DNA of 63,865 bases, the filler included, from Klebsormidium nitens (Eukaryota > Plantae > Klebsormidiophyceae), in the NCBI GenBank assembly GCA_000708835.1. It is 8 parts of 8 records of this genome, joined end to end, with 100 filler letters (N's around TTAATTAATTAA, not from the genome) between each part and the next. Parts side by side here need not be neighbours in the genome. Positions count along the whole stretch, not along the records: positions 1 to 18,407 come from DF237950.1; 7 more parts are not named here. One strand, given 5' to 3'. This document shows positions 1 to 18,407 of this stretch, one piece after another. Each line of letters opens with the position of its first letter. The first letter of the stretch is position 1. The position numbers and the translations under genes were made by a program. The notes beneath the pieces are model-generated. The model searched no databases and was not told the DNA's origin. It saw nothing but the letters and a program-made list of their open reading frames with translations.

Positions 1-270
1 CCACAGCATGCACATCTGCGGCAGGCCGGGGATGTTGGGCATCGGTGACAGGTCGGCAAACACGCCTGCCGCCCAGCAATGCTCCGTGCCGCGCAAGTGC
101 CGGGGTCACACCGTGCCGCGCACAACCTGCCGCTCGGCGGACACTGAGCGCAGACCAAAGGCTTCGGCGCCCCAGCGGCGGCGCTCCGGCACGTTCGTGA
201 TAGCAGGCAAAAGGTGCGGCACCATAGACCGTTAGGCCTAGGCGAGACCCCCTTTTTCCGATGTACGGCT

Positions 271-1323
271 CCTCCTAGAAATGTCGAGTCTTTGATCGAT
301 CAGGTTACAGTACTTGTGAATGGAATTGCCGTTGCTCTTGGAGCTCAGATGACCAACTACCTGTCTACGGCCTTGATCGATTTCTATGGGGCTGACAAGT
401 AGCCACAAAGAACTTTGTGCCAATTGGGTGCCGATGTTGCACAGCCTGCGAATGCCACAACTACTGCGATTGTGACTCCGATAGCCATCTCACACTTCCT
501 TGGTTTCCTCTCTAGCGCACAGCCCCGTTATCTGGATACGAGCATCCTTGGGAGCGTGCGCCTACAGATAAAGCTGGCTGGAACAAACGTTTTAGTTGGT
601 CCTGTCACAAGAACACCAACATACGGGTGGAAGCTTGACACCATTCAAGCTTTGTGCCAGGTGGTGAGCGTTGACGATGGCTCTTACTCGCAGATTGTCC
701 AGCAGAGGTTGAGCAACGGCGGTGTGAAGATTCCCTTTAAGTACTACCTGACCTTCCAGGGAAATGTTGGAATTGCTGGACAGAATCTGAGAATGAATGT
801 GAGCTCTCAATCTGTTGATGGAGTCTGGGCAACTTTCCAGCAAGCGTTGACTGGAGCTACTTCTTATACCGCAAATGGCTACGATTCCCAGCTCAGGACC
901 AGCACCTACTTCACGAGGTGTGCCACCAACATGTCTGACTCGGTCTTCTCCGTAAATGGAGTCGGGTTCCCGAGCATTCCCCTCACTCCCAACCAAATTT
1001 GGAATGAAAACATGCACAACATGGGACTTTCTTGCGACATGGTTGGACAGCTAGACAAGTCGTTTGTGTATGCACCAGGTGGTACCATCACGCCTGGTGT
1101 GAATGCTATCCAAAGCAACGCCTTCTTCCACTACTTCAAGTTTAATGTGGACAATGACGAAGGCACTTCCAGGCTCAGCTCTGGGTTGGATACCAGAGGG
1201 TCGGCCTCGACACTCACGTGGACGACGACTGGAAACTCAGGTTCACTTCTGCCGGTCTGCTTTGTTGAGTGCACTGGTATCATGGAGGTGGGTCCCAACC
1301 GCCAAGTGTCCGTGGTCTGGTAA
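271..1323 (+). pseudogene. MCP: PLV major capsid protein (double jelly-roll), N-terminus missing, in-frame TAG at 400-402
   Basis: ORFs 214-402 and 415-1323 share a frame and read PRNVESLIDQVTVLVNG...GADK*PQRTLCQLGAD. Beta-rich body with a PLV-type C-terminus SGLDTRGSASTLTWTT...FVECTGIMEVGPNRQVSVVW. Confidence 0.85.
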
Positions 1324-1360
1324 GCAGTTTGATTTTTATTGTCTTTCTAATGTATAAAGA

Positions 1361-1771
1361 ATGGCAGTCGCGTTCAAGACCCCCCTGGCTAACATGTTCC
1401 CTGAGAAGCTGAAGCCTAGTGAGCAGCCTTATACCGCTCCAAAAGACAATCGTTTGCTACCTAAAGTTGTTCGTATGCCAGTCGAAGTAGACTACGATGA
1501 GCTTGCACAGCCCGAAGACAAACTGGCATGGAATCTACCAAGCAAAGCTGACTTATATGGCAACTCGCTTACAATGATTGACCAAAAGAAGAACATAGCT
1601 CCTGCAAACAAGATTGGCTACAAAGAGCTACTAGACCTCAGCCTTTCCGACCTAACGCAGACAAACGTGAGTGGATTTACCTGCTTGACGGGTACGACTG
1701 CAGCCCAGCGTGGCAAGAAGTTGATCGCGAACGTGCCTCCAGTCGAGAAGCGTTGGAATACCCAAATCTGA
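1361..1771 (+). CDS. PLV hypothetical protein, 136 aa
   Basis: ATG ORF tightly packed after the MCP with an AT-rich leader; no recognisable motif. Confidence 0.7.
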   Translation: MAVAFKTPLANMFPEKLKPSEQPYTAPKDNRLLPKVVRMPVEVDYDELAQPEDKLAWNLPSKADLYGNSLTMIDQKKNIAPANKIGYKELLDLSLSDLTQTNVSGFTCLTGTTAAQRGKKLIANVPPVEKRWNTQI

Positions 1772-1863
1772 TTCTATATATTCATCCGTCAGAAGCGCGC
1801 ATCCGCGAAATCTGTCAGAAAGAACAGATATTACAGTCAAATTATTTTCTTAAGTCTCTATAA

Positions 1864-2511
1864 ATGTCTGACGATTCTATAGGGCCCATCGAATCGGAGG
1901 TTGCGGAAACTGTCGAAGAAGCTCCCGCCGTAGCCGCAACAGGGAAAGTTAAGAAGCCATGCAGCCCAGAAAAGCTAAAGCAGATGGCTTTAATGCGCGA
2001 GAAAGCAGCCCAAAAGAAAGCCCTTATGAAGGAACTTACCGAGAAGGAAAAAGCCCTCAAGCAGAAAACATTCGAAGAGCGAGTTAAGAAGGTAGAGGCT
2101 CTTGAGAAGTCCTTCAAGCCTGCACCTGAGCCTGAGCCTAAACCAAAGGCACTCCAAGCTGCACCTCTAGAGGAATCTGAGGCAGAAGTCGAGGTAGTCA
2201 AGGTGTGAAAAACAAAAAAACCCGCTAAGAAGGTGAAGAAGGTTGTGTATGTGTCTGATTCCTCTGACTCTGAGTCGTCCTCTGACAGCGATGATGATTC
2301 TCAAGATTACTATCGGCGTAAAGAAAAGAAACGATTGAAAAAGAAAGTCGATAAAAAGGTCGACAAGAAGGTTGCAAAAAAGCTCGCTGAACTCGCAGCT
2401 GCTCGACCAACACAACGAGACCTGATGCAGGTTGCTGCTCGTGACGAGATTAACTCGAAGGTTTCGAAGGCGATGAAGGAGATGGCGATGCGCTCGGTGT
2501 TTCCTGAGTAA
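1864..2511 (+). pseudogene. PLV Lys/Glu-rich coiled-coil protein split by an in-frame TGA (2206-2208)
   Basis: ORFs 1864-2208 and 2233-2511 are in the same frame and read through as EVEVVKV*KTKKPAKKVKKVVYVSDSSDSE. Confidence 0.7.
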
Positions 2512-3397
2512 CTTTGGGTTGAATAGTTTCAAGCAGAATCTGATTATCCCAACATTGCCTGAACATTCTGTTTCTATCTTTTGAATCGTAATCCACAAAC
2601 AGAAAGTCGTGAGGCTTCTGGCAGGCTTGCGTCCAGGCTTCCAAGACCTCTTCGGGGGTTGCTTTAGACGCCAGCTCTTCGGCGATCGACTCCTTCAGCT
2701 TATCTGACTTGGTGTCAAACAGAATCCAACAAGACACGTTGCCTCGAACTCCTCTAGGGATACCGTTGGTCAGCACTTGACTTGCCATGATTACTGTGCA
2801 AGAGTGATGGCGATGCAGCAAGATAAAATTCACAAAAGCCCCACGCATGGTTGGGCTGAACATCTTCTTGTCTGCGACACAATCATCTACGACCACACAA
2901 AACGAAGGAAAGCCCCATTTATAGATTGTCTTTGGTGCTTCGAAGTCCAGACCATAAAGCAACGCTATGTCATCATTGCTTAGCGAATCTATGTTCTTGC
3001 ATTTGAGGAAACGTTTCCATGCTTCTAATTCCTTTAAGTACTTTTTATATTCGTCGACTTCGTGCACCATGTAAGCCATGATATCTTTGAAACCCTCTTC
3101 TGTATACCCTGGAATCACTTCTATTGTGAAGTTTCGAGGCTCCTCAGTCAAGCAAGCAGTCTTGGGATCCCGCGTAAAAGTTGGAGAGATGACAAAAACC
3201 TTGTCGTAAGACTTTGCTGCGTCATACATAAGAAGCCATTCGCAAATCCTCGTGGTCTTACCTTGACCCATGGATCCGACAAGTGCAACTAGCGGGTGAA
3301 GGGCAGTCATGTACTCGGGCACTTTGCGGTCTCCATACGGCAGCCTCTTGTTGTTTTTGATGTCCACCTTTGAGATAGGAAGTCGTTCCGTCTTCAT
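2450..3397 (-). CDS. A32-like (FtsK/HerA) DNA packaging ATPase
   Basis: Walker A VALVGSMGQGKTT, KVFVISPT, Walker B CVVVDD, LHRHHSCTVIMASQ and IPRGVRGN; ORF intact at 315 aa. Confidence 0.92.
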   Translation of the reverse strand: MKTERLPISKVDIKNNKRLPYGDRKVPEYMTALHPLVALVGSMGQGKTTRICEWLLMYDAAKSYDKVFVISPTFTRDPKTACLTEEPRNFTIEVIPGYTEEGFKDIMAYMVHEVDEYKKYLKELEAWKRFLKCKNIDSLSNDDIALLYGLDFEAPKTIYKWGFPSFCVVVDDCVADKKMFSPTMRGAFVNFILLHRHHSCTVIMASQVLTNGIPRGVRGNVSCWILFDTKSDKLKESIAEELASKATPEEVLEAWTQACQKPHDFLFVDYDSKDRNRMFRQCWDNQILLETIQPKVTQETPSASPSPSSPSKPSS

Positions 3398-3422
3398 TTT
3401 TTATTATATATGCTGATATAAA

Positions 3423-3738
3423 ATGGTTGCAGATAAGGTCAAAGAAGAGTGGATTAGTGCTATGTGTCGGGATCACCCGAGGCTTCCAAAGTTTGTGGTA
3501 GAGGAGCTGGCGGAAACTTATGCGTTAGATGATGGGGAATCGTTGCGAGAGAATAAGAAAAAAGGGTGAAAAGTTTGCAAGAAAGCAGTCCAAGAAGGGC
3601 AAGTCAAAGTCTACCAAAGAGGAGCTAGACCCAAACAGGTTTAAAATTATGGGGGCGATTGAGGTGGAGACAGCTCCCGAGCAAGAGATTAGTGACGACT
3701 TTGAAAAGGTGACAATCGAGGAGATCACTGAAGATTAA
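3423..3738 (+). pseudogene. Small PLV protein (~104 aa) with a +1 frameshift
   Basis: The ATG at 3423 opens MVADKVKEEWISAMCRDHPRLPKFVVEELAETY. Removing one A from the A6 run at 3558-3563 joins it to ORF 3529-3738 (KKKGEKFARKQ...). Confidence 0.6.
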
Positions 3739-3758
3739 AATGTCTAATTAACTTAAAA

Positions 3759-4286
3759 ATGAATGTGAACTTTGCTGCAGGTCGCTCTGCCCCTCATCAG
3801 CCTTCACCATACCCTTTCCAGAATGTAAGCCAGAGCAAAGCTTATGAGAGAATGTACAAGATCATTCTGCACTCCGAGGATGCAGATTATGAAAATCACA
3901 CGACTTACACATTCCGAAACGTCAGTATTCCCTTTGATGAAATTAAGGGAAACTGCCGCGTCTTCGTAAATAGCTTTCACACAATTAGTCAGAGTGAACC
4001 AACATATCCTTTCTATATTAACCTTGAAGAGCTTTCTCAACCGCTTTCTTATGACAGCAGGTCTGGGACTCAAACAAAAACACTTCTGACAATGCAGGGA
4101 GCCCAGATAGAGGCCGTTAGCCCTTTGTTTGGTGCTTCAATCCAAGATCTTAGCCTATTCAGGCAACGGACTCTCACCATCACTCTCAAGAGTGCAGACA
4201 ATCACGACGATATTGACCTTATGGGAGGAGATGGTGATGTATGCTACCCCTGGACAATGACCCTGGGGATCATCCAGACCGAATGA
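3759..4286 (+). CDS. PLV beta-rich protein, possible minor-capsid-like single jelly-roll
   Basis: 175 aa with alternating hydrophobic strands. Ending LTITLKSADNHDDIDLMGG...WTMTLGI resembles penton C-termini. Lies directly upstream of the mCP. Confidence 0.55.
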   Translation: MNVNFAAGRSAPHQPSPYPFQNVSQSKAYERMYKIILHSEDADYENHTTYTFRNVSIPFDEIKGNCRVFVNSFHTISQSEPTYPFYINLEELSQPLSYDSRSGTQTKTLLTMQGAQIEAVSPLFGASIQDLSLFRQRTLTITLKSADNHDDIDLMGGDGDVCYPWTMTLGIIQTE

Positions 4287-4305
4287 AAATCTCCCTTTAG
4301 ACTAA

Positions 4306-5184
4306 ATGAGTGACTTAAATGTGCTTATCAACAGTCAATATTTATTTTTAAGATCAGCACAACCCAACTCTTATCATTCTATATTTGAGTTTGATACTGA
4401 CGTAATGACGGCAATGCCAGAGCACCAGATGAGCTTAACAGTCGTAGATTTCACCATGCAAGTCCAATATTACGTGGTCAACAGCCTAAACAACCAGCTC
4501 ACCTTGATTGATGTGCTTGCTCACACCTTACCAAGCACCACCATCACAGTCCCTCCAGGAAATTACAGCTACAGAGATCTCTGCCTCACTGTGAGCCGTC
4601 TGTATCCTGGGCTGACATGCACTTATGACAACCATGCCAACAAGGCTGTCTTCAAGTTCACGACGCCTCACACTCTTGCCTTCATAAACAACAGCTACCA
4701 AACCTTTGGATTTGACAGCACAGATGTCCCTTCTGGAACAGTCATCACCAGCACCAACCAGCTAGACCTGAAAGGAGGGGTCAATCAGCTAGTGCTGCAT
4801 GCTGCTGGAGTCTCCACCACCGCTTGCTGGAACGTGGACAATTTCAGTTCAGACCAAGACCCGAAGTGCAAACCCTCTGATGTTCTAGCAGTCATTCCTT
4901 TTGACACAGCCCCATTCACTGTCCTACACTGGCAAAATCCTGGCAACCAGTTTGAGATGTTTCTAAATGAGCGCAACATAAGCAGGCTGCAAATCACGAT
5001 CCAAAACATATACGGCAATGACCTGACCTATTTAAACCCTTATACCATCACCTTTCTGGTGAGGATTTACAAAAAGAATGTTCAAGATGGGCAAAATCGA
5101 ACTGTCGGCATCTTGAGTGAGATCCTGGACTACACAAAACTTTCTTTAATCAAATCAATCGCAGGATTAAATTCTCTGGAATAG
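4306..5184 (+). CDS. mCP: PLV minor capsid protein (penton)
   Basis: YYVVNSLNNQL, TITVPPGNYS, TYDNHANKAVF and ISRLQITIQNIYGNDL...YTITFLVRI match the PLV/virophage penton pattern. Confidence 0.8.
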   Translation: MSDLNVLINSQYLFLRSAQPNSYHSIFEFDTDVMTAMPEHQMSLTVVDFTMQVQYYVVNSLNNQLTLIDVLAHTLPSTTITVPPGNYSYRDLCLTVSRLYPGLTCTYDNHANKAVFKFTTPHTLAFINNSYQTFGFDSTDVPSGTVITSTNQLDLKGGVNQLVLHAAGVSTTACWNVDNFSSDQDPKCKPSDVLAVIPFDTAPFTVLHWQNPGNQFEMFLNERNISRLQITIQNIYGNDLTYLNPYTITFLVRIYKKNVQDGQNRTVGILSEILDYTKLSLIKSIAGLNSLE

Positions 5185-5193
5185 TTATAAAAC

Positions 5194-5472
5194 ATGGGAC
5201 TTTTTTCTCGTATCGGCTCGTCTGTCCTCAAAGGTATTCACTCAGCAGGCAAGATTATCCGTCGCATCGGTGATGTGTCATCCAACGTGGCTAAAACCCT
5301 GCACGGGTCTGCACCACTCATTCACGGGCTATCGGCGGCTATCGGCTCGAACTTCGGGTCGGCGGGTGAACACGCGTCCGCTAAGTTCAACAGACACTTC
5401 GACAGCGGGGTCGCTATGGGGCAGCTCGTGGGGAATCGAGCGTCCGTTGCAGGTAGTTTACTGAGTCCGTAG
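5194..5472 (+). CDS. Small Gly/Ser-rich protein with an N-terminal amphipathic helix (candidate membrane-penetration protein)
   Basis: MGLFSRIGSSVLKGIHSAGKIIRRIGDV; last gene of the capsid block, 9 nt after the mCP stop. Confidence 0.65.
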   Translation: MGLFSRIGSSVLKGIHSAGKIIRRIGDVSSNVAKTLHGSAPLIHGLSAAIGSNFGSAGEHASAKFNRHFDSGVAMGQLVGNRASVAGSLLSP

Positions 5473-5523
5473 TCCTGAACCAATCATCATTTTTCTGATT
5501 TTCAACGTACAAGTTAAAATATT

Positions 5524-5868
5524 TGGGGAGGGCAACTTAGTGGGGAGGGCATTTTTCGTGGGGAGGGCATTTTTCAACTCATTTGACATTTCGATTGCCG
5601 AATCTGTCCTCCCCGCACACCGAAAAATATTGTTTTCTTTTTTAGATCATTTTATTACTGTTATCAGTCCATATTTATCTTATATATCTTTGTTGTTATT
5701 TGGAAATGAGTAGTGGGGAGAGTAAATTGATGGGTGGGGAGGGCGGGGAGGGCAATAAACTAAAAAATATTTTTGAAGGGGGTAAGTAAAAAAATAACTT
5801 TAGGAAAATGGTCTCCCCGCCCTCCCTACCCAAAATCGTCCTCCCCACCCGCCTATTGTCCCTCCCCC
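5524..5868. repeat. GGGGAGGGC direct and inverted repeat array between convergent gene blocks
   Basis: TGGGGAGGGCA at 5524, 5541 and 5559. Perfect 14-bp inverted pair GGGAGGGCGGGGAG (5737-5750) / CTCCCCGCCCTCCC (5813-5826) around a 62-nt AT-rich spacer. Further CTCCCC copies up to ~5868. Confidence 0.85.
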
Positions 5869-5921
5869 AGCTGAATATGTTAGATTCCAAGACTGAATTC
5901 AGTCTCGTAGAAAAAAATGAT

Positions 5922-8537
5922 CTAAGCAAGAGCGTCCTCCTCATCATCGTCGTCCCCCAGGTCTTTTGGCACAATGCCGCGATATACGACGTTTTTATGG
6001 AAAGGTCCGCGTGTCGTGATTTTCTCCGCAGTATGTTCGTTGGAATTCATAGCCTCCTTGAACTGCTGCTGATTCTTGCCAACATAGAAGTGACTCGACT
6101 TGTACGCCTGGTACAGGTCGCCAGCCTTGATGATATCATCAGGGTTGTTAGTGATGTCATAAAACTCTGACAGGAATCCACCGATTACGTTGTTAGAGTC
6201 GATGTACTCATTGGTACACTCAATGATTGACTGCGGGGTCGGCATTTTGCCGTGTAGTTGGACGTGCACGTGGGTCTCGATAAGCAGCCGCACAAATTCC
6301 TGCCAATATGACTCGCCGTTGGTAATATTGCCCTTTAGTTCTGTGTCGCCCTTGCGCTCGCAGGGTCTTGTGGGGTTCTCGACGAATTGAATGAGATGCG
6401 TAATAATCTCCACCCGCCTTTTGATGCCTTCGTCGTAATTATCTAGGGAGGCCTTGTTATTCATCTGGAGAACCAGCACAAATTGCGGAATATATTCGAT
6501 GAAGGACTTGTATAAGTCCCTGGCTTGAATCCTGTCCCTCCCTGACTTTTTCTTGAGCTCGGCGGTGTTAAATTTGTCATTGGTGCCTGGCTTGGTCATA
6601 CACCAGATTCGTTTGCCCTTACCCCGAGCGACTTCGCTGTTGGCGGCACTGCTGTTCCTCTTGCTGCCCGTAAAGATGCTGACGTCAGGCTGATAGTAGT
6701 AGTCGCCCAGAGTTTTGTCGTATAGTGTCTGCATGATGCCCTTGCCGTTCCCACCCTTACCAACCCAAAACTGGATTTTCTCATCCTTCTTGTCGCCGTG
6801 CAAGATGTAAGCACCAAACTGTAGCATGTATTGTACCATTTCGTCAGTGTCATAAATGCTTTTCAATAATTCGAGGAGCAACTTCCGCATTCTCGGGTTA
6901 ACCTTGGGGCTGTAGTTATAGCCAGTAGAGAAGGTCAAGAAGTCATTTGGTCTACCCGCTCTGAATTCCATAGCGTTAAGGTCGTAAACCCCATTCTCAA
7001 ACCCGATAAGATGCGGCGACTCGTCCAGTTTGTGTAGGAACTCCTTGTCGGACAGGTAGAAAAAATCAGCACACTCCTTCATGATTGCGTTCTTGAATGT
7101 CTGGTTCTTCAGTCGCTTGGCGATCTTTCTGTACTGGTCGCCAGTGTCGTCCTTGTCCTCATCGTCCGAGTCGTCCGAATCAGCACGTGCCTTCTTGACG
7201 CAAGCCTTGGACATAGCAGTGAATGCCTTGTACACGTCCGTAGACAGCTTGAGACGCAGCCTGTCAACCCCGCCCACGCAGACCTCCCACCGATGCCCAG
7301 TGAACTTGTACCACGTGGACTTGTCCTTCTCGTCCTTGCTGCTGACGTAATCAAACTTGAACATTGAGTACACGACCTGTGCCACGTCATAATGACTACC
7401 TGAAAGTGCCGTGATCACAGCAGTCTGCATACTGGTCTCAATGTACTTCTTGTACAGTTCGGGGTTGTCGATCTTAGCCCAGTAGTGCAGGCTGCGAATA
7501 GTGTTGCCAGGCTTAAAGTCGTACCACATCTTATCGCACTCACCAGCCTGGTACTTGGACGACAACTGACTGAATTTATCCCAGACCGGTAGAAGACCCT
7601 CATCAACACTGTGCAGGCTAGAGCCAACCGCCAACCAGTCGCTTCTGACGTCAGCCCTAGACGGAGCCAGCATAGCCACAAGCTGCTCAACCTCCCCCAG
7701 AAGAACCATATTGCACGTGGGGTGAACAACCTTCGTTGGCTGAGCGTCAGGTTTGGCGCTCATAGCAGCGGCAAATGCGGCAACCTCCTCCGCCTTCTCC
7801 GGGAGCACCTTGGACTCATCATCATTGCCGTTCTTGTTGCGAATAGATAGCTGGTCAGTCAAATCGGACGGCTCATCTTCACAGGGATCGGAGTCACCAT
7901 CCTTACCCCACAGAGTGTAAGCGCACGTGTAGGCAGGTCCTGTACCGTCCTTGGTACTCCCGTACATCAGGAGGGGGTTCTTGTCAATAACCGCCAAGTC
8001 GTAGATGTCATTCCACGTGTTCAGGAATTTGACGTCGGCGAAAATCTCGGACAGCGTGCTAGACTCCAACAGATTCTTACGGATGATGTGCTGGACGGTT
8101 GAAACCGTTACTATGTCGGGGAAGTGCAGGTGAAAACCGTCCTTGAAAGGGTGCTTCTTGTCAGCTCGGGGGGCGGGTTTTTCCAGCGCGTAACACGTCA
8201 GTGCATCCTCGTCAAAGTTGACGTAATGTGAGGCTTCTTGGGTGACGGCGGTGTAGATTGCTTTGATATGGTCGGTAGTGTAAACACGCTTCGCCGACTC
8301 CTGCTTGAAATCGAAGTCGATGAAGATGGGTGACGTGGCACGGTGTTTCTCAGTCAGAGTCAGGTGAATCTTCTTTGTGAGTGCAGCGTTGTACAGATCC
8401 ATGAAGGACTCTGATTGTTCTTCATTTACATAGTACGTACCTTTAAAATCACCAGCACACCCGGTGTGTGTATATTCAGAACCCTTCTGCACTTTGCGGG
8501 AGTTGAGGAAGTTTAGAAGATTCTGCTTTGCTGCCAT
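5922..8537 (-). CDS. D5-like primase-helicase (AEP primase + PriCT + D5_N + SF3 helicase), 871 aa
   Basis: AEP motifs IFIDFDFK, DGFHLHFP and YDLAVIDKNPLLMYGSTK; PriCT-like DWLAVGSSLH...WDKFSQLSSKY; IGFENGVYDL; Walker A WVGKGGNGKG. The Walker B region reads MTKP where SEP/TEP is expected. Confidence 0.92.
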   Translation of the reverse strand: MAAKQNLLNFLNSRKVQKGSEYTHTGCAGDFKGTYYVNEEQSESFMDLYNAALTKKIHLTLTEKHRATSPIFIDFDFKQESAKRVYTTDHIKAIYTAVTQEASHYVNFDEDALTCYALEKPAPRADKKHPFKDGFHLHFPDIVTVSTVQHIIRKNLLESSTLSEIFADVKFLNTWNDIYDLAVIDKNPLLMYGSTKDGTGPAYTCAYTLWGKDGDSDPCEDEPSDLTDQLSIRNKNGNDDESKVLPEKAEEVAAFAAAMSAKPDAQPTKVVHPTCNMVLLGEVEQLVAMLAPSRADVRSDWLAVGSSLHSVDEGLLPVWDKFSQLSSKYQAGECDKMWYDFKPGNTIRSLHYWAKIDNPELYKKYIETSMQTAVITALSGSHYDVAQVVYSMFKFDYVSSKDEKDKSTWYKFTGHRWEVCVGGVDRLRLKLSTDVYKAFTAMSKACVKKARADSDDSDDEDKDDTGDQYRKIAKRLKNQTFKNAIMKECADFFYLSDKEFLHKLDESPHLIGFENGVYDLNAMEFRAGRPNDFLTFSTGYNYSPKVNPRMRKLLLELLKSIYDTDEMVQYMLQFGAYILHGDKKDEKIQFWVGKGGNGKGIMQTLYDKTLGDYYYQPDVSIFTGSKRNSSAANSEVARGKGKRIWCMTKPGTNDKFNTAELKKKSGRDRIQARDLYKSFIEYIPQFVLVLQMNNKASLDNYDEGIKRRVEIITHLIQFVENPTRPCERKGDTELKGNITNGESYWQEFVRLLIETHVHVQLHGKMPTPQSIIECTNEYIDSNNVIGGFLSEFYDITNNPDDIIKAGDLYQAYKSSHFYVGKNQQQFKEAMNSNEHTAEKITTRGPFHKNVVYRGIVPKDLGDDDDEEDALA

Positions 8538-8559
8538 TTTAATATACCTGGCGACATTT

Positions 8560-8573
8560 CTTTAAGTAGTTTT
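8560..8573 (-). promoter_or_regulatory. Conserved PLV upstream motif AAAACTACTTAAAG
   Basis: 22 nt upstream of the primase-helicase ATG; identical copies at 9406-9419 and 9852-9865. Confidence 0.75.
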
Positions 8574-8613
8574 CACTTTACCTTAAAATGAAACAAAAAA
8601 ATGACTTCAATAA

Positions 8614-9381
8614 TTACATCGAAAACTTGAGTTCCAGATAGTTAAGAGCTAACTGCACGTTAGGTGTGGTCGGAGAAATGGTCTGGACAGCCCAAGCAGC
8701 ATACCCCCGGTCGATTTCGTAAACACACCTTCCCTTATACTTGGTTCCAATGGGCCAAATGCAGTTAGATGCCTCGGTCTGGACGTATCTCGGACGCACG
8801 TCAATCTCGTCCGGATTGGTTGATTTGATGTACCGTGAGATGTCAAAATTCCTGACACGTGGCGCAATCGTGGCAGCGGATATCGCCCGCATCCGATAGC
8901 CATATTGAAAACGACAGTCCTTGCAGTATCCCACGTGGCTCTTACGTTGTTTCTCGCCGCACTCATTACAGCGGCGACCTTCCCGCTTTTCACGGCAGAT
9001 CGTACAATAATTGTCCTTGCGATTCTTATGGGGCATGCGGCAGTTTGCACAGGTCTTCCCCTGATTATCGGGAGGTAAGAACCTTAAGATGCAGCAATTC
9101 CCGACCACGAAAAGCTTGGGCGGGTTGCACCGTCGATCGTTGGGCATGTACTCCACGTAACAGTTCTCCTTGATCCAATGGGTGCATTCACACTCTTCCA
9201 CAAAGTCAGGCTGAAGCGACACGTCACCAAACCGTTGCATGAAGTAGTTAAAGCGAGACTGCTTATTTCCTCTCGCGTAGTAGAAGTAGCGAAATGACTT
9301 GGCACCAGTCTGCCCGAAAAGCTTGTCCTTCAGAATTCGTGCATATTCTTGCCCGGGGTGCGAATCAATGCCTGGTTGCAT
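8614..9381 (-). CDS. Cys-rich zinc-finger-like protein with a C-terminal GxKYKG...Y..W motif
   Basis: CxxC pairs (CANC, CTIC, CNEC, CKDC). WPIGTKYKGRCVYEIDRGYAAWAV resembles DUF3820/exonuclease-X C-terminal domains. Confidence 0.7.
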   Translation of the reverse strand: MQPGIDSHPGQEYARILKDKLFGQTGAKSFRYFYYARGNKQSRFNYFMQRFGDVSLQPDFVEECECTHWIKENCYVEYMPNDRRCNPPKLFVVGNCCILRFLPPDNQGKTCANCRMPHKNRKDNYCTICREKREGRRCNECGEKQRKSHVGYCKDCRFQYGYRMRAISAATIAPRVRNFDISRYIKSTNPDEIDVRPRYVQTEASNCIWPIGTKYKGRCVYEIDRGYAAWAVQTISPTTPNVQLALNYLELKFSM

Positions 9382-9405
9382 TTGTAATTTAATGAAAAGG
9401 CTTCT

Positions 9406-9419
9406 CTTTAAGTAGTTTT
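9406..9419 (-). promoter_or_regulatory. Conserved PLV upstream motif AAAACTACTTAAAG
   Basis: 24 nt upstream of the ATG at 9381. Confidence 0.75.
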
Positions 9420-9482
9420 CATTTTGTCAGAAAAAGGAAATTTAGAACAAAACCCTAAACAAAACCCTAAATCCTCAAAATC

Positions 9483-9824
9483 TCAAATTTTGTGCTCGGC
9501 CGCCGCTTTAGCCGCCCGACGTTCCTGTCGCAGTCTCGCCGACCTTTCCTTAGCTCTCAGCCGTTTCTTCTCTCGGTACTCTGGGTCGTTTTGATACCGT
9601 TCGTTGCTTCGTTGATTGATCGAGTCACGCTCCTCTTTGCTCAGCTTGTGAAAGCGCTTGCGAGCAGCTGTACGAACTTTGTCTGCATATTCCGCATCCT
9701 CCTTGTATCGAGTTGAAAGTTTTACCAAGGGCTCAGGTGCATTCTCAACACCTGCTTTGATGTGTTCTGCAATCTGTGTTAAGGCGAACGCCTTGATGGT
9801 GGCAGTCAGTGCGTCGATATCCAT
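9483..9824 (-). CDS. Basic helical hypothetical protein (RYQNDPE motif)
   Basis: 113-aa ATG ORF preceded by the conserved upstream motif. Confidence 0.75.
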   Translation of the reverse strand: MDIDALTATIKAFALTQIAEHIKAGVENAPEPLVKLSTRYKEDAEYADKVRTAARKRFHKLSKEERDSINQRSNERYQNDPEYREKKRLRAKERSARLRQERRAAKAAAEHKI

Positions 9825-9851
9825 TCTTACTAATACAACAAGGTAATATTC

Positions 9852-9865
9852 CTTTAAGTAGTTTT
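9852..9865 (-). promoter_or_regulatory. Conserved PLV upstream motif AAAACTACTTAAAG
   Basis: 27 nt upstream of the ATG at 9824. Confidence 0.75.
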
Positions 9866-9890
9866 AGTTTTTGCTGCAAAATTAAATTCC

Positions 9891-10134
9891 TTAATTTGCA
9901 TTTGAAGCACTTGCCGCGGCTTTGTTGCGATGATAGCGTTCCTTTTGATAAACTCTTACCTTTTCAGCATGCTCAGGATCATTCTGATACCTTTCCCTAG
10001 CTTTTATACGCTGCTTATCAAGCAGTACCTTCTTTTTCGCAGGTGGAAGACTGTGATACCATAGCCTTTGACAGAATGAATGCAACTTTTTTCAATTCTG
10101 TGGGATTCGTTGGGACGCTAATCTCCATTTTCAT
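9891..10134 (-). pseudogene. Paralog of the 9483-9824 protein, +1 frameshift
   Basis: Removing one base from the T6 run at 10087-10092 joins MKMEISVPTNPTELKK to LHSFCQRLWYHSLPP...KARERYQNDPEH. Confidence 0.6.
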
Positions 10135-10204
10135 TCTATTGAGAAAATAATGCGGAATATACAACCCGAATTTATATATCCTCCTTGTAGTAAAGAACGA
10201 AACC

Positions 10205-11468
10205 ATGCCACGAACTAGAGGGAGCAAGAATGCAGGCAAGACAATAGACATAGATACCGAGCCAGCTGCACAGTCTGTTGCGGCGGCGGCAACCAGAAGC
10301 ACGAGAAGCAAACCTGCAGCCCCTAAACCAGCCCCTGCACCTGCTCCACCCCCACCTGCTGCAAAGCCAAAGCCAGCCAGACGTGCTGCTAAAGGTAAGG
10401 GGAAGGAGAAACATAAAACTATTACGGTCGAGGATGCGACTGAACAGGTAGAAAGAAACGCTTAATCTTGCACCCGATACAAAGCAAGACTACGTGCGCA
10501 AGGTGGAATTCATTGCGCGCTGCTTGCGGGAGAAAGATCTGCAAAAGCTAATCAACCAGCCAGACAAAGTTATCGCATACATTCGAGACAGGTACATGAA
10601 CCTAAATTCCCGCACTGGTTATGCTGTAGCATGTGTGAGTATCATCAAACATAGTACGTTGAAGGTAACGGATGATGTGCAGCAGAAATACTACGATTTT
10701 ATGATGAAATGCGCGCGCGAAGTTCAAGAAATGAACAAAGACAACGTGCACAAGGTCGATGAAGTCATGTTGAACGGTAAACGAGTTGTGTGGAAAGACA
10801 TCTTGAATCTCGAAGCAAAGATGCGCAAAGAACAATATGCATCGAAAGACCATCTAATGGTGGCGATTTTTTCCTTGCAGAGCCCACGCAGACTCAAAGA
10901 TTTTTGTAAGATGGAGGCATTTAAGAGCAAAGCAGAGTTTGATAAAACGGCTGCCCTGAATAAGATCTGGCTGGATACTCGAATGAAGTGTGCGCATATG
11001 AGTATATCTGAATTCAAAACCTTCAAAGATAAAGGAACGTACACAGCCAAAATAACTGGGGTCTTATATGAGATTATCAAAACTAGTCTAGCAGAGCACA
11101 AACGGAAGTTCTTATTTGAAACCACCAATCAAGATCCTTACACTAGCGGTACGTTCTCTAAGCTGCTAACAGATACTTTTAAACGAAATCTAAGCTGTTC
11201 TATCGGGCTGAATAGTCTTAGGCACCTAAAAATAACCAGTTTCTTGGCTCAGAATCCGTCGTTGAGAGAGCGGAAACAGCTCGCTTGGGAGATGGGGTCG
11301 AGTGTTGCTATGCAAGCTGTGTACAACCAACCAGACACCCAGGCCACTCGAGCTGCAAGAGAGGCAGAGAAGAACGCCAAGTTAGCTGAGATCAAACGAT
11401 TGCGAGAACAGATCGACGCAAACATCAAGAAAATTAGTCAGTTGAGCCAGGAGCTGGCTGATTTGTAG
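10205..11468 (+). CDS. Tyrosine recombinase/integrase, probably with an N-terminal basic Pro-rich extension (one +1 frameshift near 10450)
   Basis: Catalytic-type motifs SPRRLKDF, EFKTFKDKG, NSLRHLKIT and EMGSSVAMQAVY. The recombinase frame stays open upstream of the GTG at 10494 (KETLNLAPDTKQDY) but has no ATG of its own. Confidence 0.85.
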
Positions 11469-12210
11469 ATGGTTCTTTGTGCTTCCGTTTCATATGACGA
11501 GTTATACTTGATCTGTTCATCTCACAGTCACTCACAAAGCACTTTGTTTGCTCTTTATTTTTAGCATTCACTATGTCTTTGTTCTTTTCTCGGTATGCTT
11601 GGCTGGCTACTTTCAACTTCTCTTTATTGTCGATATACTTCTGACGTAAGATTGCCTTGTTCTTCTGCCTATAATCCTTGCAAAGTTGTTCAATCTTCTC
11701 CCTATTTTTTGTTCGATACTCCGCCATGTAATTTTTGATATGATCTTCATGTGCTTTTGCATACTCCCTTTTCTGTTCACGTGTTTCATCCTTATGCTTC
11801 TCATAATAGACTTTCTTCATAGCCTTTATCGCATGAGAGTTTTTCTGATTGTAATCCTTCATTCTTTTACTGATGTGTTCCTTGTTGGTTTTATAGTATT
11901 CCTTTTGTGTCCTGGTTGGAATGTTTCTATTCAGTTTTGACTCCAGCTTCTCAATCCAGAATCTCTCACGCGATCGAAGTTTGTCTTTTGAATTACAAGG
12001 AAATGGCTCAAGCAAAGTAATCTGAATATCCTCCCAACCAGTCTGCAGAGACAGAACAGCAGCGTACAAGGGCACAGTGGGCTTTTCGAACGAAGTTCTT
12101 ACATGCCCAGACCTCCGTTCAGCAAGAGTCTTCTGGACAGTGCTCCCCACATAATATCCAAAATCTGGGACACTTATCTTGTAGATCTTTCCGAGGCTAT
12201 AATCAGGCAT
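11434..12210 (-). CDS. GIY-YIG endonuclease (NCLDV/PLV type) with a basic repetitive tail
   Basis: YSLGKIYKISVPDFGYYVGST...ERRSGH and LLEPFPCNSKDKLRSRERFWIE; C-terminal CxxxxC...HxxxxH. Confidence 0.9.
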   Translation of the reverse strand: MPDYSLGKIYKISVPDFGYYVGSTVQKTLAERRSGHVRTSFEKPTVPLYAAVLSLQTGWEDIQITLLEPFPCNSKDKLRSRERFWIEKLESKLNRNIPTRTQKEYYKTNKEHISKRMKDYNQKNSHAIKAMKKVYYEKHKDETREQKREYAKAHEDHIKNYMAEYRTKNREKIEQLCKDYRQKNKAILRQKYIDNKEKLKVASQAYREKNKDIVNAKNKEQTKCFVSDCEMNRSSITRHMKRKHKEPSTNQPAPGSTD

Positions 12211-12240
12211 CTTGTGTTTTACTGTGTTTACATAAGTTTC

Positions 12241-12250
12241 CTTTAAGTAC
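12241..12250 (-). promoter_or_regulatory. Variant PLV upstream motif GTACTTAAAG
   Basis: 30 nt upstream of the GIY-YIG ATG; shares the TACTTAAAG core. Confidence 0.6.
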
Positions 12251-12316
12251 TAACAATTCGAACAAGCAAACAAGGTTCCTGGAATGCAACAGAGGAACTC
12301 AGAAGGCTCACCTGTC

Positions 12317-13144: not shown

Positions 13145-13255
13145 GCGCTGCAGTCAGTTTCCTCGTCTACCTTGAGGTCAATTGCACGTTCTCAAAAGAG
13201 ACGGTCCAGAAGATCTCTGGTCTTCTTTTTCGTCTATCCTTCTCAACCTAGGTGC

Positions 13256-13657
13256 TGTAATCAGTAGCTCTATTGCTAGCAATATTAGCTCCAATTCTAA
13301 CACGGTAAGGCGGAGAAGCACGAGGTAGATAAATCTCTAAGAGAAGAAAGGTTTAGCTCAATTGTGTAAAACACGGAATGAGCTCTACAAGTGGATAAGT
13401 CCACTATTTGTAGTGAGCTCTCAGCCTAAGGGCTGCGGCTCAGCTTACAGACTGCATTGTATGCAGTCTTACAATGTTATGCGTATTGGTGAGCTTAGTA
13501 ATCTAAGCTCACCTAGCGTCAGCCAATAGGAAGCAAGCATTCCTTTAAACAGGATATGTTACCGTTACTAGGGTTTAGCGTTGCAATCTATATATGTGCT
13601 CAGCGTTAGATCTCAAAATCTACGGCTATAATTCTATCAAAAGATCCACGTGTTACA
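13256..13657 (-). repeat. 3' LTR (402 bp, TGTAA...TTACA)
   Basis: TG/CA ends. Positions 13256-13309 are identical to 18353-18406 (54 nt). TATATAG box near 13590. Confidence 0.9.
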
Positions 13658-13660
13658 GCA

Positions 13661-13671
13661 GTCCCCCCCTT
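13661..13671 (-). other. Polypurine tract AAGGGGGGGAC
   Basis: Lies between the pol stop and the 3' LTR start. Confidence 0.85.
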
Positions 13672-16600
13672 AAGTACTGGCAATGTCCTCATTGCCGGGT
13701 TCTAAATTAACCAAGTGTGCGTCTACCCACTGTGCCTCGTGAAAGGGCTGGTCACGGTAGGTAACTAGGTACTGAGTACGCTGTCGGGTACCGCGTCCGA
13801 CGGTGCGCTGATCTACGACGGCTTCCATGGGGTGTTGTGGCCGTTCGGCGGTGAGTACCGGAGGGGGTGGTGGAGGGTCCCGGTCTGTGAACCGGTCGGG
13901 GTCGTTAGGATTACAGGGCTTGAGCTGGGATACGTGGAAGACCGGATGGATTGTCATGTGGGCGGGGAGGTCTAACCGGTAGGCTACGTCGGATATGACC
14001 TGCTGAATGGTGAACGGGCCGGTATATTTGGGGGCTAGTTTTCGGACCTGAGAGCGGGTGGGGAGCGACAAGTGGGCGGTGGAGAGGTATACTTGGTCGC
14101 CGGGTTGGAAGATAAGGGGGCGGCGGCGGGTGTCGGCGTATTGTTTTTGGCGGTTTTGGGCGAGTGCGAGGAGGGTTTTGGCATCTTGGATGCCCGTGGC
14201 TATGTTGTGGAGGAATTGATCGGTGGCGGGGGTATCGGAGGACGGGGGTTTGAGGAGGGTGCCAGGTGTGAGAGGGTGGCGACCAGTGTTTAGGTAGAAT
14301 GGGGAGTGACCGGTGGAAAGTTGGACCGAGTTGTTATAGGCGAACTCGACGGCGGTGAGGTGTAAGTCCCAGTCGGTGTGGCGGGCGTTGACATAGGGCC
14401 GCCGAGAGCTTCTTCGACCACCCGGTTGACGCGCTCGGTCTGACCGTCCGTCTCGGGGTGGAACGCGGTGGAGAAGGAGAGCTTGGTACCGAGGAGCCTG
14501 AAAAGGGTGCGCCAAAAGTTAGATGTGAACCGTGGATCGCGATCAGAGATAATGACTCGAGACAGCCCCTTATGTCGGAAGACATTGTCGAAATATACTC
14601 TGGCGATAGCAGGCGCAGTGGTATCGTCAGAGATAGGTGCAATTTTAATTTCCTTCGATAATCTGTCGACAAAGACTGCAATGCTGGAATTTCCACGTGA
14701 TGTTTTGGGCAAGCCCACGATTAGGTCCATAGTGATTTGTTCCCACCGCCCCGGGGGATAGGAATGGGCTGCAAAAGACCCCCGGGGCGGCGGTTAGTAG
14801 GTTTGTTTCGCTGGCATGCATCGCATGAGCGAATGTAACGCCGGACATCCGCTTGGAGGTCCGGCCAGTAGAAGGTGCGGGCTGTGAGTTCCTCCGTCTT
14901 GTCCATTCCTAGATGGGCAGAGACGTTACAATCGTGGCTAGTACGTAGTACCCGAGTACGCAGTTCGGGTACCGGTGGTATCATTGTACAACCGGTCAGA
15001 GTTGTACAGCAAGCCTGCGTCCAGGGAGAAGTCGCCGAAAGCAGTGTCAGCTAACAGCATGCGGGAGATAACCATCTGCGCATAAGGGTCAGTAGAGGTG
15101 GCAGTGCGCACAGCGGTTAGGAAGGTATGGTCAGGGATCAAACTTGACACGGAGGCGAGTACCGGTTGGTCTACCGGTGGTTCGACCTTATGGTCCGGGC
15201 GTCGCGAAAGCGCGTCCGGTACTGTGTTCAAGCGCCCTTCCCTGTACGTGAGGTTTAGGATAAACTGAGCCAATTGCTCCTCCCACCGGTGATGGCGGGA
15301 GCGCATAAACTCAAGCTTGAGCGGGTATAGTAGTGGCCGGTGATCGGTACGGACGGTCACCGGCCGGCCTAGTAGGTAGTGACGCCACTTGTGGGTTGCA
15401 TGCACCAGCGCCAGTTGCTCCCGGTCGCGTGCGGAGTAGTTCCGCTCGGCGCGATTGAGTCGCTTGGACTCAAACGCGATCGGGTGCAAATCGGTACCGG
15501 TACCTTGCAAAAGTACGCCGCCCACCCGTGGCAAAGTCAGAGGCGTCAAGATCGAGAGTGCATGGCAGTGTAGTGTCAAAAGGGCGTAAGATAGGTGCAT
15601 GGGTTAGTGCGAATTTGAGTGAGTGGAATGCGTGGTTATGCCTATCGGTCCACTCGAATTTTGCACCCTTCACCAGCAGATCAGTCAGAGGGGCTGCAAT
15701 ACGCGAGAAATCCCGAATAAAGCGACGATAAAACCCCGCAAGTCCAAGGAAAGAGCGTATGTCGCCAGGATCCTGGGGTTGAGGCCATGCGGTTACCGCT
15801 GCAACCTTGCATGCCTCCATTGACACCCCCTCAGAATTGATGACGTGGCCGAGGAAGGTAACCTCGGTACGCCACAATTCACACTTGGACTCCTTGGCAA
15901 ACAATGTGTGCTCGCGCAGACGTGTGAAGCCTTCCCGGAGGAGCCGCTCGTGCTCTTCTGCAGAATCGGAGTAAATTAGTATGTCGTCAAGGAAAATGAC
16001 GACGCCCCGATCAAGCAAATCCCGGAAAACCTTGTGCATTAAATCCATAAAGCAGGCAGGTGCGTTAGTCAAGCCGAAGGGTAGAACAAGCCACTCGAAA
16101 TGCCCATATCGAGTCCGAAATGCCGTCTTCGATACGTCAGCAGAATCAATCGGAATTTGCCAATAGCCCGAGCGAAGGTCGATTTTCGAGAAGAATTTAG
16201 CACCGTGTAGCTGGTCGATTAGGTCATCGGCCCGGGGGAGAGGATATGCATTTTTAACAGTTTGTTTATTAAGCCCCCGGTAGTCTATACAGAAGCGCAA
16301 GCCCGCGTCCTTCTTGGGGGCGAAGAGGACGGGGGCCCCCCACGGAGAGTTGCTCGGGCGGATGAACCCCTTGGCAAGGAGGTCATCCAGAGTCTTGCGC
16401 AACTCCTCAAGCTCCGCGGGGGACAGCCGGTAGATAGGTCGGTTTACAGGGGTGGCGCCCGGGGTAGTGTCTCGATTTTGAAGGGCATGCCACGGTCGGG
16501 GGGTAGGTTGCCCGGTAGGTCCTGAGGAAAAATGTCAGGAAATTCAGCTTTGAGTTTTTCACAGCGTTCGTACTCAGGCGCGCGGTTTTGAGCCGCATCC

Positions 16601-17210
16601 GGTGTAACGTTCGGAACAACCTGGTACACGGGGTGATTTTCTTTAAGAGTTTATTAATCTGGACGGAGTTAAGCAGTCGGTCAGATCCAAATTCCTTGCG
16701 CAAGGCGCGCTTAGAAGGTTTCCCGGCCTCAAGCGTTACAACCCGTCCAGCGTGAGCAAAGGTGACAGTGCGGCGCAACCAATCGACGTTCTTGTTACCC
16801 GACTCTAGCCACGGCAAACCCAAAATGACATCGTAAGTGATGTCCGTAACGACGAAATGTAGGTCCTCGGAGTACTCAGTACCGACCGAAAGGGGCACGG
16901 CATGAGTAGTCCATTTGACCGGTTGCTGTGAACCGTCGGCTAGAGTTACAGGCTCCAAGGAAACATCGCTGCGCAAACCAAGATTCAAGCGACGAGCAAA
17001 CCCGGTAGACATAACAAGGTCAGAGCAACCCGAATCAATCAAGACTCTGCATGCAACACCCTTAACCACACCACGCAAAAACATTAACCGGCTTGACTTC
17101 GGGCCACTTGGGCCCGGAGCGGCCTTGCGGTTCCTGGGGAGGGGACCGCGGTCCCCTTCAGAGTTGCCACCAGTGGACGTCCCGGGACCGTCTACTGGGG
17201 CGTGAAGTTT
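13670..17210 (-). pseudogene. pol: pol: protease, RT, RNase H, integrase, chromodomain; about 6 frameshifts
   Basis: LIDSG protease; RT motifs [15 protein letters not shown] and FLDDILIY; RNase H LDASD, AFESKRL and TDHRPL; IN HxxxxH/CDAC, MDLIVGLP, FVDRLSK and HPETDGQTERVN; KYTGPF; chromo-like EAVVDQR...YLVTY...AQW. The pieces lie in ORFs 16407-17084, 16444-16629, 15470-16402, 14938-15600, 14721-14984, 14290-14730 and 13670-14515. Confidence 0.93.
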
Positions 17211-17213
17211 TCC
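17170..17213 (-). promoter_or_regulatory. Programmed -1 ribosomal frameshift signal (G_GAA_AAC plus downstream stem-loop)
   Basis: Heptamer at 17207-17213, 8-nt spacer, then stem CCAGT-A-GACG/CGTC-C-ACTGG at 17170-17198. The -1 frame is open into the protease. Confidence 0.75.
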
Positions 17214-18229
17214 GGAAGCCTAGGCTCAGGGCCGAAGTCGATCAGGTCCGGGTGCTCGGTGGGTGTTGCCGAGCGCTCGGCTTGATTGACCCGGGGGTTC
17301 TGCGCAGGGGAGGAGGTACCAAGAGGGCAGTTAGTCGCAATGTGACCAGTCTGGCGACACCTGAAACAACCACCAATCTTCCGTAACCGATCCCTCTCGG
17401 CATCGGTTAGCGGGAGCAGCCTACGTCTCAATGCATCGATCTCCATAGGAACAGGGTCAGCGACAGGGTTAGAAGCAGGACGAGAGAGGATAGGGACCGG
17501 GGTGTAGGTGGTTGATCGCCCTTTTGGCTGGCGATCCAACCCAAACCCGGGGGAGAAGAGGGAGTCCATGCGGTCCGCCAGCTTGACCGCGTCCTCAAAG
17601 GTGGCCGGTTCGCGCATGGTAACTTCCATGCGCGTGCGCGGCTTGAGCCCTCGGACGAAGCGGTCGAGCAGCTCGTCGTCTTGGATGTTTGGTACCTGCA
17701 TGGCTAGCTCTTGAAGTTTTTGAGCGTATGAGCGCACACTCCCATCTTGCTTGAGATTAGCCATTTTATCTCGTGCATGGCGAGTGGCATTCACAGCCCG
17801 GAAGCGAGAGAGAAGCTCGTCGTGGAAGTACGACCAGTCGTACAGAATGTCATGCTCGGGGGTACCCTCAAGGCGAGTACACATGTACCGCCACCATGTC
17901 TTAGCACCCCCCTCAAGCAAACCCGCAGCATGCAAGACCTTCCTATCGTCAGGAACATGCATGCCCAAGAAGTACTGCTCGCAATCGAATAAGAAGTTCT
18001 CCACTGCCCCCGCAGTGGACGAACCATTATAGGATTTGGGTTGGGGAAGCTTAAGCTTCCCCGTTACCTCTGAGCTTGCAGCCTGTGCGGGTGCTGCCTG
18101 AGCTGCCGGGGGGGTCGCTTGCAGTGTCGCCAGGCGCTGCACCTCGCCTTGCAGCCCTGTCACCAGTCCCACCAGCTGAGTGATGGCTGCTTGCATGGTC
18201 GCCGGATCAGGATCAAACTGATCCCCCAT
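17192..18229 (-). CDS. gag: Retrotransposon Gag with a CCHC zinc knuckle
   Basis: KLPQPKSYNG, LEGGAKTWW, LKQDGSVRSY, RFVRGLK, PVPMEID and CFRCRQTGHIATNC. Confidence 0.95.
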   Translation of the reverse strand: MGDQFDPDPATMQAAITQLVGLVTGLQGEVQRLATLQATPPAAQAAPAQAASSEVTGKLKLPQPKSYNGSSTAGAVENFLFDCEQYFLGMHVPDDRKVLHAAGLLEGGAKTWWRYMCTRLEGTPEHDILYDWSYFHDELLSRFRAVNATRHARDKMANLKQDGSVRSYAQKLQELAMQVPNIQDDELLDRFVRGLKPRTRMEVTMREPATFEDAVKLADRMDSLFSPGFGLDRQPKGRSTTYTPVPILSRPASNPVADPVPMEIDALRRRLLPLTDAERDRLRKIGGCFRCRQTGHIATNCPLGTSSPAQNPRVNQAERSATPTEHPDLIDFGPEPRLPENFTPQ

Positions 18230-18352
18230 GTCTTGAAGTGCCCTTCAGCTCACTGTGAACGGAGGTAGAGAGAAAGAGGAGCTAGAGATCAAGGTGTGGC
18301 CTTGATTGACGGGGAGAGAAAGGGAGAAGGATCTTGTTCCTTGCAATACCAA

Positions 18353-18407
18353 TGTAATCAGTAGCTCTATTGCTAGCAATATTAGCTCCAATTCTAACAC
18401 GGTAAGA
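18353..18407 (-). repeat. 5' LTR, visible 3' end only
   Basis: 54 nt identical to the other LTR, then an N gap. Confidence 0.9.

Follow-up and report, generated by a model that had tools for sequence, protein, structure and literature searches.

A broken polinton-like virus copy of the PgVV/Gezel group in Klebsormidium nitens, with a candidate replication origin and a candidate promoter box

The stretch of DNA analysed here, hereafter the window, comprises 63,865 nucleotides of the Klebsormidium nitens assembly GCA_000708835.1, in eight pieces divided by seven spacers of 100 N. The element under study, a copy of a polinton-like virus (PLV), lies within the first piece (1–18407, from DF237950.1), and sequence past 18407 was not counted as flank because of the intervening spacers. 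Fourteen intronless, tightly packed genes span 265–12250 with a coding density of 0.92 (Table 1), nine of them open and five broken, and the GC content of this region is 46.5%, compared with 51.1% in 18508–63865. The genes form a morphogenesis block, with the major capsid protein (MCP), packaging ATPase, penton and small genes, and a replication block, with the D5 primase-helicase and a likely tyrosine recombinase. An earlier reading made from the sequence alone (the sequence-only reading) had proposed a PLV of about 14 intronless genes in two such blocks, in a streptophyte algal host, and these proposals were borne out. The gene set, the fold of the MCP family and a published listing in the PgVV group all agree with a PLV, and the MCP and D5 proteins share 100% identity with K. 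nitens KFL_010010010 and KFL_010010020, hence the host is the streptophyte alga K. nitens.

Gene content and identity of the element

PLV hallmarks, following the definition in PMC11071308, are a double jelly-roll MCP, a single-jelly-roll penton, an A32/FtsK-like ATPase and a replicase other than pPolB, often with a tyrosine recombinase, as well as terminal inverted repeats around a 15–30 kb genome. A double jelly-roll MCP, a penton (minor capsid protein), an A32/FtsK-like ATPase and a non-pPolB replicase were found here, the recombinase part being read from atlas neighbours and motifs only. In a Pfam scan of the 18 open reading frames (ORFs) of 265–13144, one (D5) scored above curated cut-offs, and no match to pPolB, RVE integrase or Ulp1 protease was found among the 18, a set that does not cover the missing left part of the element. 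Instead of the pPolB, RVE integrase and Ulp1 combination that marks Polintons/Mavericks, the element thus carries D5 and a likely tyrosine recombinase. Rfam gave no match in 1–18407. The element is a real, broken and incomplete PLV copy, neither near-complete nor a new lineage.

Table 1. Features of the element and its flanks, with positions along the window
Feature	Position	Strand	Description
Multi-copy GC-rich (67%) repeat	1..263	.	Contig ends inside; likely end of a TA-targeting DNA transposon, unclassified, within the MCP gene
MCP pseudogene, PgVV/Gezel group	265..1323	+	First ~65 codons absent by comparison with full-length relatives (homology starts only at ~265); stop 400–402; open 403–1323; 83% identity to full-length P0002
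Unknown-family gene, 136 aa	1361..1771	+	Open frame after MCP; same C-terminus in K. nitens P0026
Lys/Pro/Glu-rich coiled-coil gene	1864..2511	+	Broken by stop 2206–2208; paralogue P0019 reads through
A32-like packaging ATPase, 315 aa	2450..3397	-	Open; Walker A GSMGQGKT (aa 41), Walker B VVVDD (aa 168)
Small gene	3423..3738	+	Likely frameshift near 3540–3570, suggested by two overlapping frames
Unknown-family gene, 175 aa	3759..4286	+	Open frame
Likely minor capsid (penton) protein, 292 aa	4306..5184	+	Open; two-step profile link to solved pentons
Basic Gly/Ser-rich gene, 92 aa	5194..5472	+	Open frame
Candidate origin	5525..5867	.	Ten GGGGAG repeats arranged as two convergent sets that surround AT-rich spacers, immediately downstream of D5
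D5-type AEP primase / SF3 helicase, 871 aa	5922..8537	-	Open; Pfam AEP_C962R 3e-56, PriCT_2, D5_N
Candidate promoter box TACTTAAAG	8560..12249 (8560, 9406, 9852, 12241)	-	Ends 22, 24, 27 and 30 nt before the starts of D5, 255-aa gene, 113-aa gene and GIY-YIG
Cys-rich (zinc-ribbon-like) gene, 255 aa	8614..9381	-	Pfam DZR_2 E 9e-4, below cut-off
Arg/Lys-rich gene, 113 aa	9483..9824	-	Resembles small gene directly upstream of D5 in L022, pairwise E 7e-6
Likely frameshifted paralogue of 113-aa gene	9891..10134	-	tblastn 61% over 23 aa at 9936–10004; frame differs from ATG at 10134
Likely tyrosine recombinase	10205..11468	+	Frameshift near 10460; both pieces align to one 409-aa relative, P0176
GIY-YIG endonuclease, 258 aa	11434..12210	-	Open; BLAST E 6e-10 to L002:11067–11735, itself Pfam GIY-YIG 1e-8
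Unknown-family gene, 275 aa	12317..13144	-	Without TACTTAAAG box; CpG observed/expected 0.59; 0-difference contig 11244–13285 joins gene to virus
Ty3/Gypsy long terminal repeat (LTR) retrotransposon	13256..18407	-	LTR 13256–13657, other LTR cut by contig end; Pfam RVT_1, Retrotrans_gag, Ty3_capsid

The MCP had 462 relatives at E ≤ 0.001 among cluster representatives. The truncated copy in the window modelled poorly (pLDDT 49.6, from an 18-row alignment), which counts against assigning a fold to it directly, hence the fold was taken from a relative. The model of P0003, a full-length relative of 80% identity, reached a pLDDT of 91.7 from an alignment of 124 rows and matched double jelly-roll capsids at a Foldseek E of 5e-16 and the PBCV-1 capsid at a Z of 26.4 (rmsd 3.5, 358 aligned). 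By this modelling the MCP family is double jelly-roll, in keeping with the sequence-only reading, which had put forward structure prediction as one of its checks.

Giant-virus capsids were the top solved-structure matches of the MCP, as would be expected if the locus were a fragment of an endogenous giant virus (Nucleocytoviricota). However, identity to these capsids is ≤ 14%, no PLV capsid was among the solved matches to compete, and the best BFVD match of the MCP relative model, an unnamed entry, had a TM of 0.79 at 20% identity, with giant-virus MCPs at TM ≤ 0.64. The published cluster of this MCP is that of PgVV (PMC10120064), and among the 18 ORFs we found no giant-virus core gene except D5, hence no combination of a giant-virus-type MCP with core genes. 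The D5 gene is of C962R type, giant-virus genes are known in Klebsormidium, and giant-virus genomes carry the majority of the D5 relatives found in viral contigs (28–35% identity), all of which would suit a giant-virus fragment. Yet the best D5 match among viral contigs (36% identity) was L022, which is 22 kb long and encodes penton-like and A32 proteins, and in a D5 tree a 15-row group with the Walker A motif GNGKG, including the window D5 and L022, was set apart from 31 other viral D5s (chosen from 79 D5 loci) with SH-like support of 100. A giant-virus origin of the locus is therefore very improbable.

No Pfam match to the D5_C winged-helix domain was found in the window D5. Two additional scans for D5 loci of the PLV type yielded none beyond L022, and a scan of prokaryote genomes for D5-type loci returned nine.

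The recombinase candidate is likely a tyrosine recombinase, judging from atlas scores of 0.95 to Phage_integrase and 0.94 to ResT/TelK clusters and from catalytic-type Arg, Lys, Arg-His and Tyr residues recognised by eye. Two observations weigh against this assignment, as Pfam, NCBIfam and PDB searches gave no match and the first His of the H-x-x-R motif is missing. The integrase gene of the sequence-only reading is accordingly kept in part: a likely tyrosine recombinase is present, but a frameshift splits it. At the end of L022, a free PLV-like contig, a perfect 788-bp palindrome without spacer occurs at 13293–14868, which may mark a junction of hairpin telomeres or have arisen as an artefact of amplification; it deserves mention because the window recombinase also scores near ResT/TelK.

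Support for the packaging ATPase came from BLAST matches to the ATPase of the PLV contig L002 (E 8e-16) and to that of L022 (E 2e-7), the latter itself a Pfam Pox_A32 match at 5e-12, and from a PHROG P-loop match at 6e-6; no direct Pfam Pox_A32 match was obtained. The 292-aa gene is likely the penton, through a link of moderate strength. It aligned to profile A7 at an hhalign E of 3e-5 across 197 columns, and A7 in turn matches PBCV-1 P1v1 at 1e-11 and the EhV-201 penton at 4e-7. Its atlas neighbours were viral clusters at 0.98, with a recognition value of 2262 that is under the tool threshold. Among the small genes, the 136-aa and 92-aa proteins had no Pfam or PHROG match, and the 175-aa protein had no family match and no similarity to the penton profile.

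Close relatives of the MCP, ATPase and penton were not found in viral contigs, and none of the close relatives sought was found in prokaryote genomes or phage records. A scan with the MCP alignment detected one locus in metagenomes and one in viral contigs. A distantly related MCP (22% identity) belonging to the same family is encoded on L002 (1–14544 of an 18.8-kb viral contig), which also has an ATPase, GIY-YIG, a gene resembling a lipase and a fibre-like repeat gene. In the public gene model KFL_010010010 (P0001, window 34–2511), the MCP remnant is spliced to sequence derived from the repeat and to a portion of the gene at 1864; like P0019 and P0026, this model is likely an artefact of annotation.

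Lesions, flanks and integration

Besides the truncation and stop of the MCP, the stop in the coiled-coil gene (which lies in a 0-difference run contig, 2064–2600) and the recombinase frameshift, two more small genes (3423–3738 and 9891–10134) are likely frameshifted. In the Walker B motif of D5, Lys occupies aa 649 (6591–6593), where nine of ten aligned relatives have Glu and the tenth Gln. Five lesion sites (MCP stop, 2206 stop, 3540–3570 overlap, Walker B and recombinase frameshift) are inside contigs from sequencing runs with 0 differences to the window, hence these lesions are unlikely to be assembly slips; the runs compared represent one sample, which may be the window's own source. One run, X5, showed a strong C>T/G>A excess. 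This copy is unable to make capsids and likely unable to replicate alone.

The sequence-only reading had called the virus near-complete, which does not hold because both ends are missing and five genes, including an MCP without its first ~65 codons, are broken. A stronger version, a near-complete and potentially inducible provirus, would be compatible with the nine of 14 genes that remain open, the ATPase, penton and 871-aa D5 among them, and with one contig of run X4 that joins the MCP to a different upstream sequence, because of which the 5′ cut of the MCP could be an assembly join. Against it, the stops in the MCP and at 2206, the frameshifted recombinase and the altered Walker B motif are all found in contigs identical to the window, and no ends were found, so that such a provirus is scarcely credible.

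Both flanks of the decayed copy consist of host repeats. On the left, the repeat at 1–263 had a summed contig depth of 94–243, compared with 16–23 in unique parts (depth being a rough guide), and another copy of it reaches the same TA (264–265) and then continues into different sequence. This TA falls at Gly-Thr codons where MCP homology starts, and a TA-targeting transposon has, on this sequence pattern, likely landed in the MCP gene. On the right, one unique contig from 11244 crosses the boundary and ends 30 nt into the LTR, one short of the bridging rule of the tool, and the Ty3/Gypsy element carries a 54-nt identical repeat at 13256 and 18353. As the contig breaks inside both flanking repeats, the true ends lie outside it. 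From the host repeats on both sides we infer that the element is likely integrated in K. nitens DNA.

Several observations weigh against integration. The left junction was bridged by no contig among the matches listed, and one 4.9x contig in X4 carries 161 other letters ahead of position 272, which probably reflects sequences joined across a short segment that a sister copy has in common, or, less probably, a wrong join within the window. No gene on the contig was recognised as a single-copy host gene, and self-comparison of 1–18407, from which the left end is missing, revealed no terminal inverted repeats or target-site duplication of the virus. A virus living free in the culture and joined to host repeats through an assembly error would likewise give a short contig with repeats at both ends and an unbridged left junction among the matches listed. 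A replicating virus is unlikely to carry so many disabling lesions, however, a single unique contig covers the right side as far as the LTR, the TA junction is as expected of a genuine transposon insertion, and seven diverged MCP loci are catalogued in the assembly (PMC10120064), hence we consider such a misjoin improbable, with a small chance of being correct. Diverged copies of the element are present in the same runs, and the MCP and D5 relatives were listed with contigs of equal size (24447, 87036, 28115 and 82331).

Between the virus and the retrotransposon, the 275-aa gene, which may be of host or viral origin, had no family or PDB match. A possible PD-(D/E)xK-like core was recognised in it by eye.

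Candidate replication origin and promoter box

The GGGGAG array between the two gene blocks is likely a replication origin beside D5, as predicted from its sequence and position. Ten copies of GGGGAG occur in 441 bp, compared with a mean of 0.43 in 2000 shuffles (maximum 4) and two copies in the remaining 11.5 kb of the element. At its core is a 20-bp inverted repeat (5731–5750 / 5813–5832) with a 62-nt spacer. The same layout is found in L022, where the inverted repeat, likewise G-rich, measures 19 bp, has a 63-nt spacer and lies 60 nt past the D5 stop. Inverted-repeat scores for the L022 and window pair were 25.0 and 23.5, and ≤ 13.0 in the other 77 of 78 D5 loci; this score was devised after L022 had been seen, favours GC-rich arms, was compared with mostly AT-rich giant viruses and has one outside example. 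A scan for exact tandem iterons gave one locus, which was unrelated.

The closest likeness is to the origins of SaPIs as described in PMC9371898, where 6–12 short iterons in opposite directions around an AT-rich centre lie directly downstream of the (primase-)helicase gene, the position at which the window has its ten GGGGAG repeats. SaPIs are however bacterial phage satellites with biochemically shown binding, and the window is alike in layout only. No iteron origin for PLVs was described in the literature we found, and terminal inverted repeats have been proposed as PLV origins (PMC11296320). We also considered fused terminal repeats of a circular intermediate, which are disfavoured as the arms are only ~20 nt and built of short repeats. 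Alternatively, the array may be a terminator between two convergent gene blocks. For the start of replication in PLVs without a protein-primed polymerase, the proposal we found places the origin in terminal repeats (PMC11296320). The internal array of ~350 bp beside D5, echoed in one distant free contig, provides a defined DNA for testing.

A second lead is the box TACTTAAAG, present in six copies in the window, all on the minus strand within the element, of which four are upstream of gene starts. Its 14-mer version had four matches against 0.44 expected. Among 1031 distinct upstream 60-mers from the 79 D5 loci, which are mostly giant viruses and partly redundant, ACTTAAAG occurred in 10, compared with a shuffle mean of 1.3 (maximum 5, 100 shuffles) and two for the reverse complement, and in the unreduced set 7 of 11 matches were 21–28 nt before the start. 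These counts suggest that the box is modestly enriched before giant-virus genes, a pattern that the giant-virus fragment weighed above would share, and that TACTTAAAG is likely a giant-virus-type promoter. Both this function and the generality of the box are challenged by L022 and L002, which lack it before their genes. We found nothing relevant on the box in the literature. On the capsid side, ‘TCTA’ precedes genes but occurs 72 times in the element, too common to test.

A promoter matched to a helper virus is plausible because Gezel-14T is described as using the early promoter of its helper (10.1101/2022.07.28.501842) and Klebsormidium as carrying phycodnavirus-like genes (PMC5294986). A shared promoter box could guide the search for the helper giant virus of this alga, which is closely related to land plants.

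Relationship to described polinton-like viruses

The MCP of this element is already catalogued. Table S5 of Bellas et al. 2023 (PMC10120064) gives BANV01002520.1 (18,407 bp), gene 424–1323, 299 aa, in cluster MMPC_86 of the PgVV group, as one of seven K. nitens loci. In Table S4 the K. nitens MCPs are credited to Roitman et al. 2022 and 6, 19 and 216 MCP hits are given for three Mesostigma assemblies, and the main text names Streptophyta as PgVV-group hosts. Klebsormidium is unnamed in the main text of the Roitman preprint (10.1101/2022.07.28.501842), the supplements or journal version of which may describe the elements further; a gene-level description of K. nitens PLV elements was not found in the literature. 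The sequence-only reading had suggested a new PLV lineage in a poorly described host group, which the earlier listing in the PgVV group overturns. PgVV-group capsid genes in K. nitens, including this one, and in Mesostigma were known, and only the origin and promoter leads are new.

Consistent with this, a FastTree of 78 MCPs, restricted to rows of at least 290 aa and representatives up to P0099, placed the window MCP and nine close relatives on one side of a branch with SH-like support of 99, which makes them, by sequence, a tight subclade and not a new group. The tree includes no named reference such as Gezel-14T, a point against reading the group from it, hence the group name rests on the published clustering.

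The PgVV/Gezel group, including Gezel-14T, is the nearest known system. The same MCP is catalogued in its cluster (MMPC_86/PC_0089, PMC10120064), and MCP, penton, A32 ATPase, tyrosine recombinase and GIY-YIG are among the gene families reported for the group (10.1101/2022.07.28.501842). Further traits of the group are the core genes PGVV05 and Tlr6F and replication that depends on a co-infecting giant virus; several small genes of the window element have no assigned family, and the box enrichment in giant-virus loci and the giant-virus genes of the host bear only indirectly on helper dependence. The replicase differs, being TVpol in PgVV (10.1101/2022.07.28.501842) and a C962R-type AEP-D5 primase-helicase in the window element. 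PgVV genes also all run in one direction, whereas those of the window element run in both, the upstream box is AAAATTGA in PgVV and TACTTAAAG here, the part of the element present showed neither a lipase nor a tail-fibre gene, and the window copy is broken. S2x-group PLVs of Tetraselmis striata (10.1101/2025.10.09.676808) are similarly endogenous in a green-lineage host, with a D5 helicase-primase near a tyrosine recombinase. These PLVs are TsV relatives with terminal inverted repeats, and some were shown to be reactivated by a giant virus, whereas the window element has no ends found and is known from its sequence. PLVs associated with entomopoxviruses (PMC11296320) share a replication module of D5-like primase-helicase, tyrosine recombinase and nearby GIY-YIG, but their origin is proposed in terminal inverted repeats, whereas our candidate is internal, between the capsid and replication blocks. 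Viral genes are reported as methylation-enriched in K. nitens (PMC12344493).

Taken together, it is highly probable that the locus is a decayed PgVV/Gezel-group PLV copy, likely integrated in K. nitens DNA, whose ancestor would have replicated through D5 from the adjacent predicted origin, likely integrated by its recombinase, built a double jelly-roll capsid and likely depended on a giant virus. By analogy with Gezel-14T and the Tetraselmis PLVs with D5 and recombinase, such helper dependence is likely. The ancestor would have entered the cell with or ahead of a giant virus and expressed its replication genes from the TACTTAAAG box, D5 would have loaded on the adjacent repeats to start replication, and the ATPase would have packaged DNA into MCP/penton capsids. 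Integration may have proceeded via the recombinase, as proposed for the Tetraselmis PLVs with D5 plus recombinase (10.1101/2025.10.09.676808). After integration this copy would have decayed and collected transposons, one likely inserting at a TA of the MCP gene and a Ty3/Gypsy element to the right, and less damaged sister copies may supply the lost functions. More tentatively, and with somewhat less than even confidence, we suggest that a PLV lineage marked by GNGKG D5s, including the Klebsormidium-type clade, may use an internal SaPI-style iteron origin after the primase-helicase, not terminal repeats, together with a TACTTAAAG promoter borrowed from a yet-unknown giant virus of streptophyte algae.

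Other pieces of the window carry further genes of interest. Broken frames at 18979–20090 resemble, by eye, a primase-polymerase (AEP) with a C-terminal zinc motif, with no Pfam match. EsV-1-7 cysteine-rich repeats, which are typical of giant-virus-derived genes, occur at 31847–33334 (Pfam 1e-26) and are followed by a nuclease-like region. An HNH_2 endonuclease gene was detected at 48349–49167 (Pfam 3e-8), and a host gene at 52356–53279 encodes a STIG1-like cysteine-rich repeat protein (Pfam 1.5e-32), of a family known from land plants.

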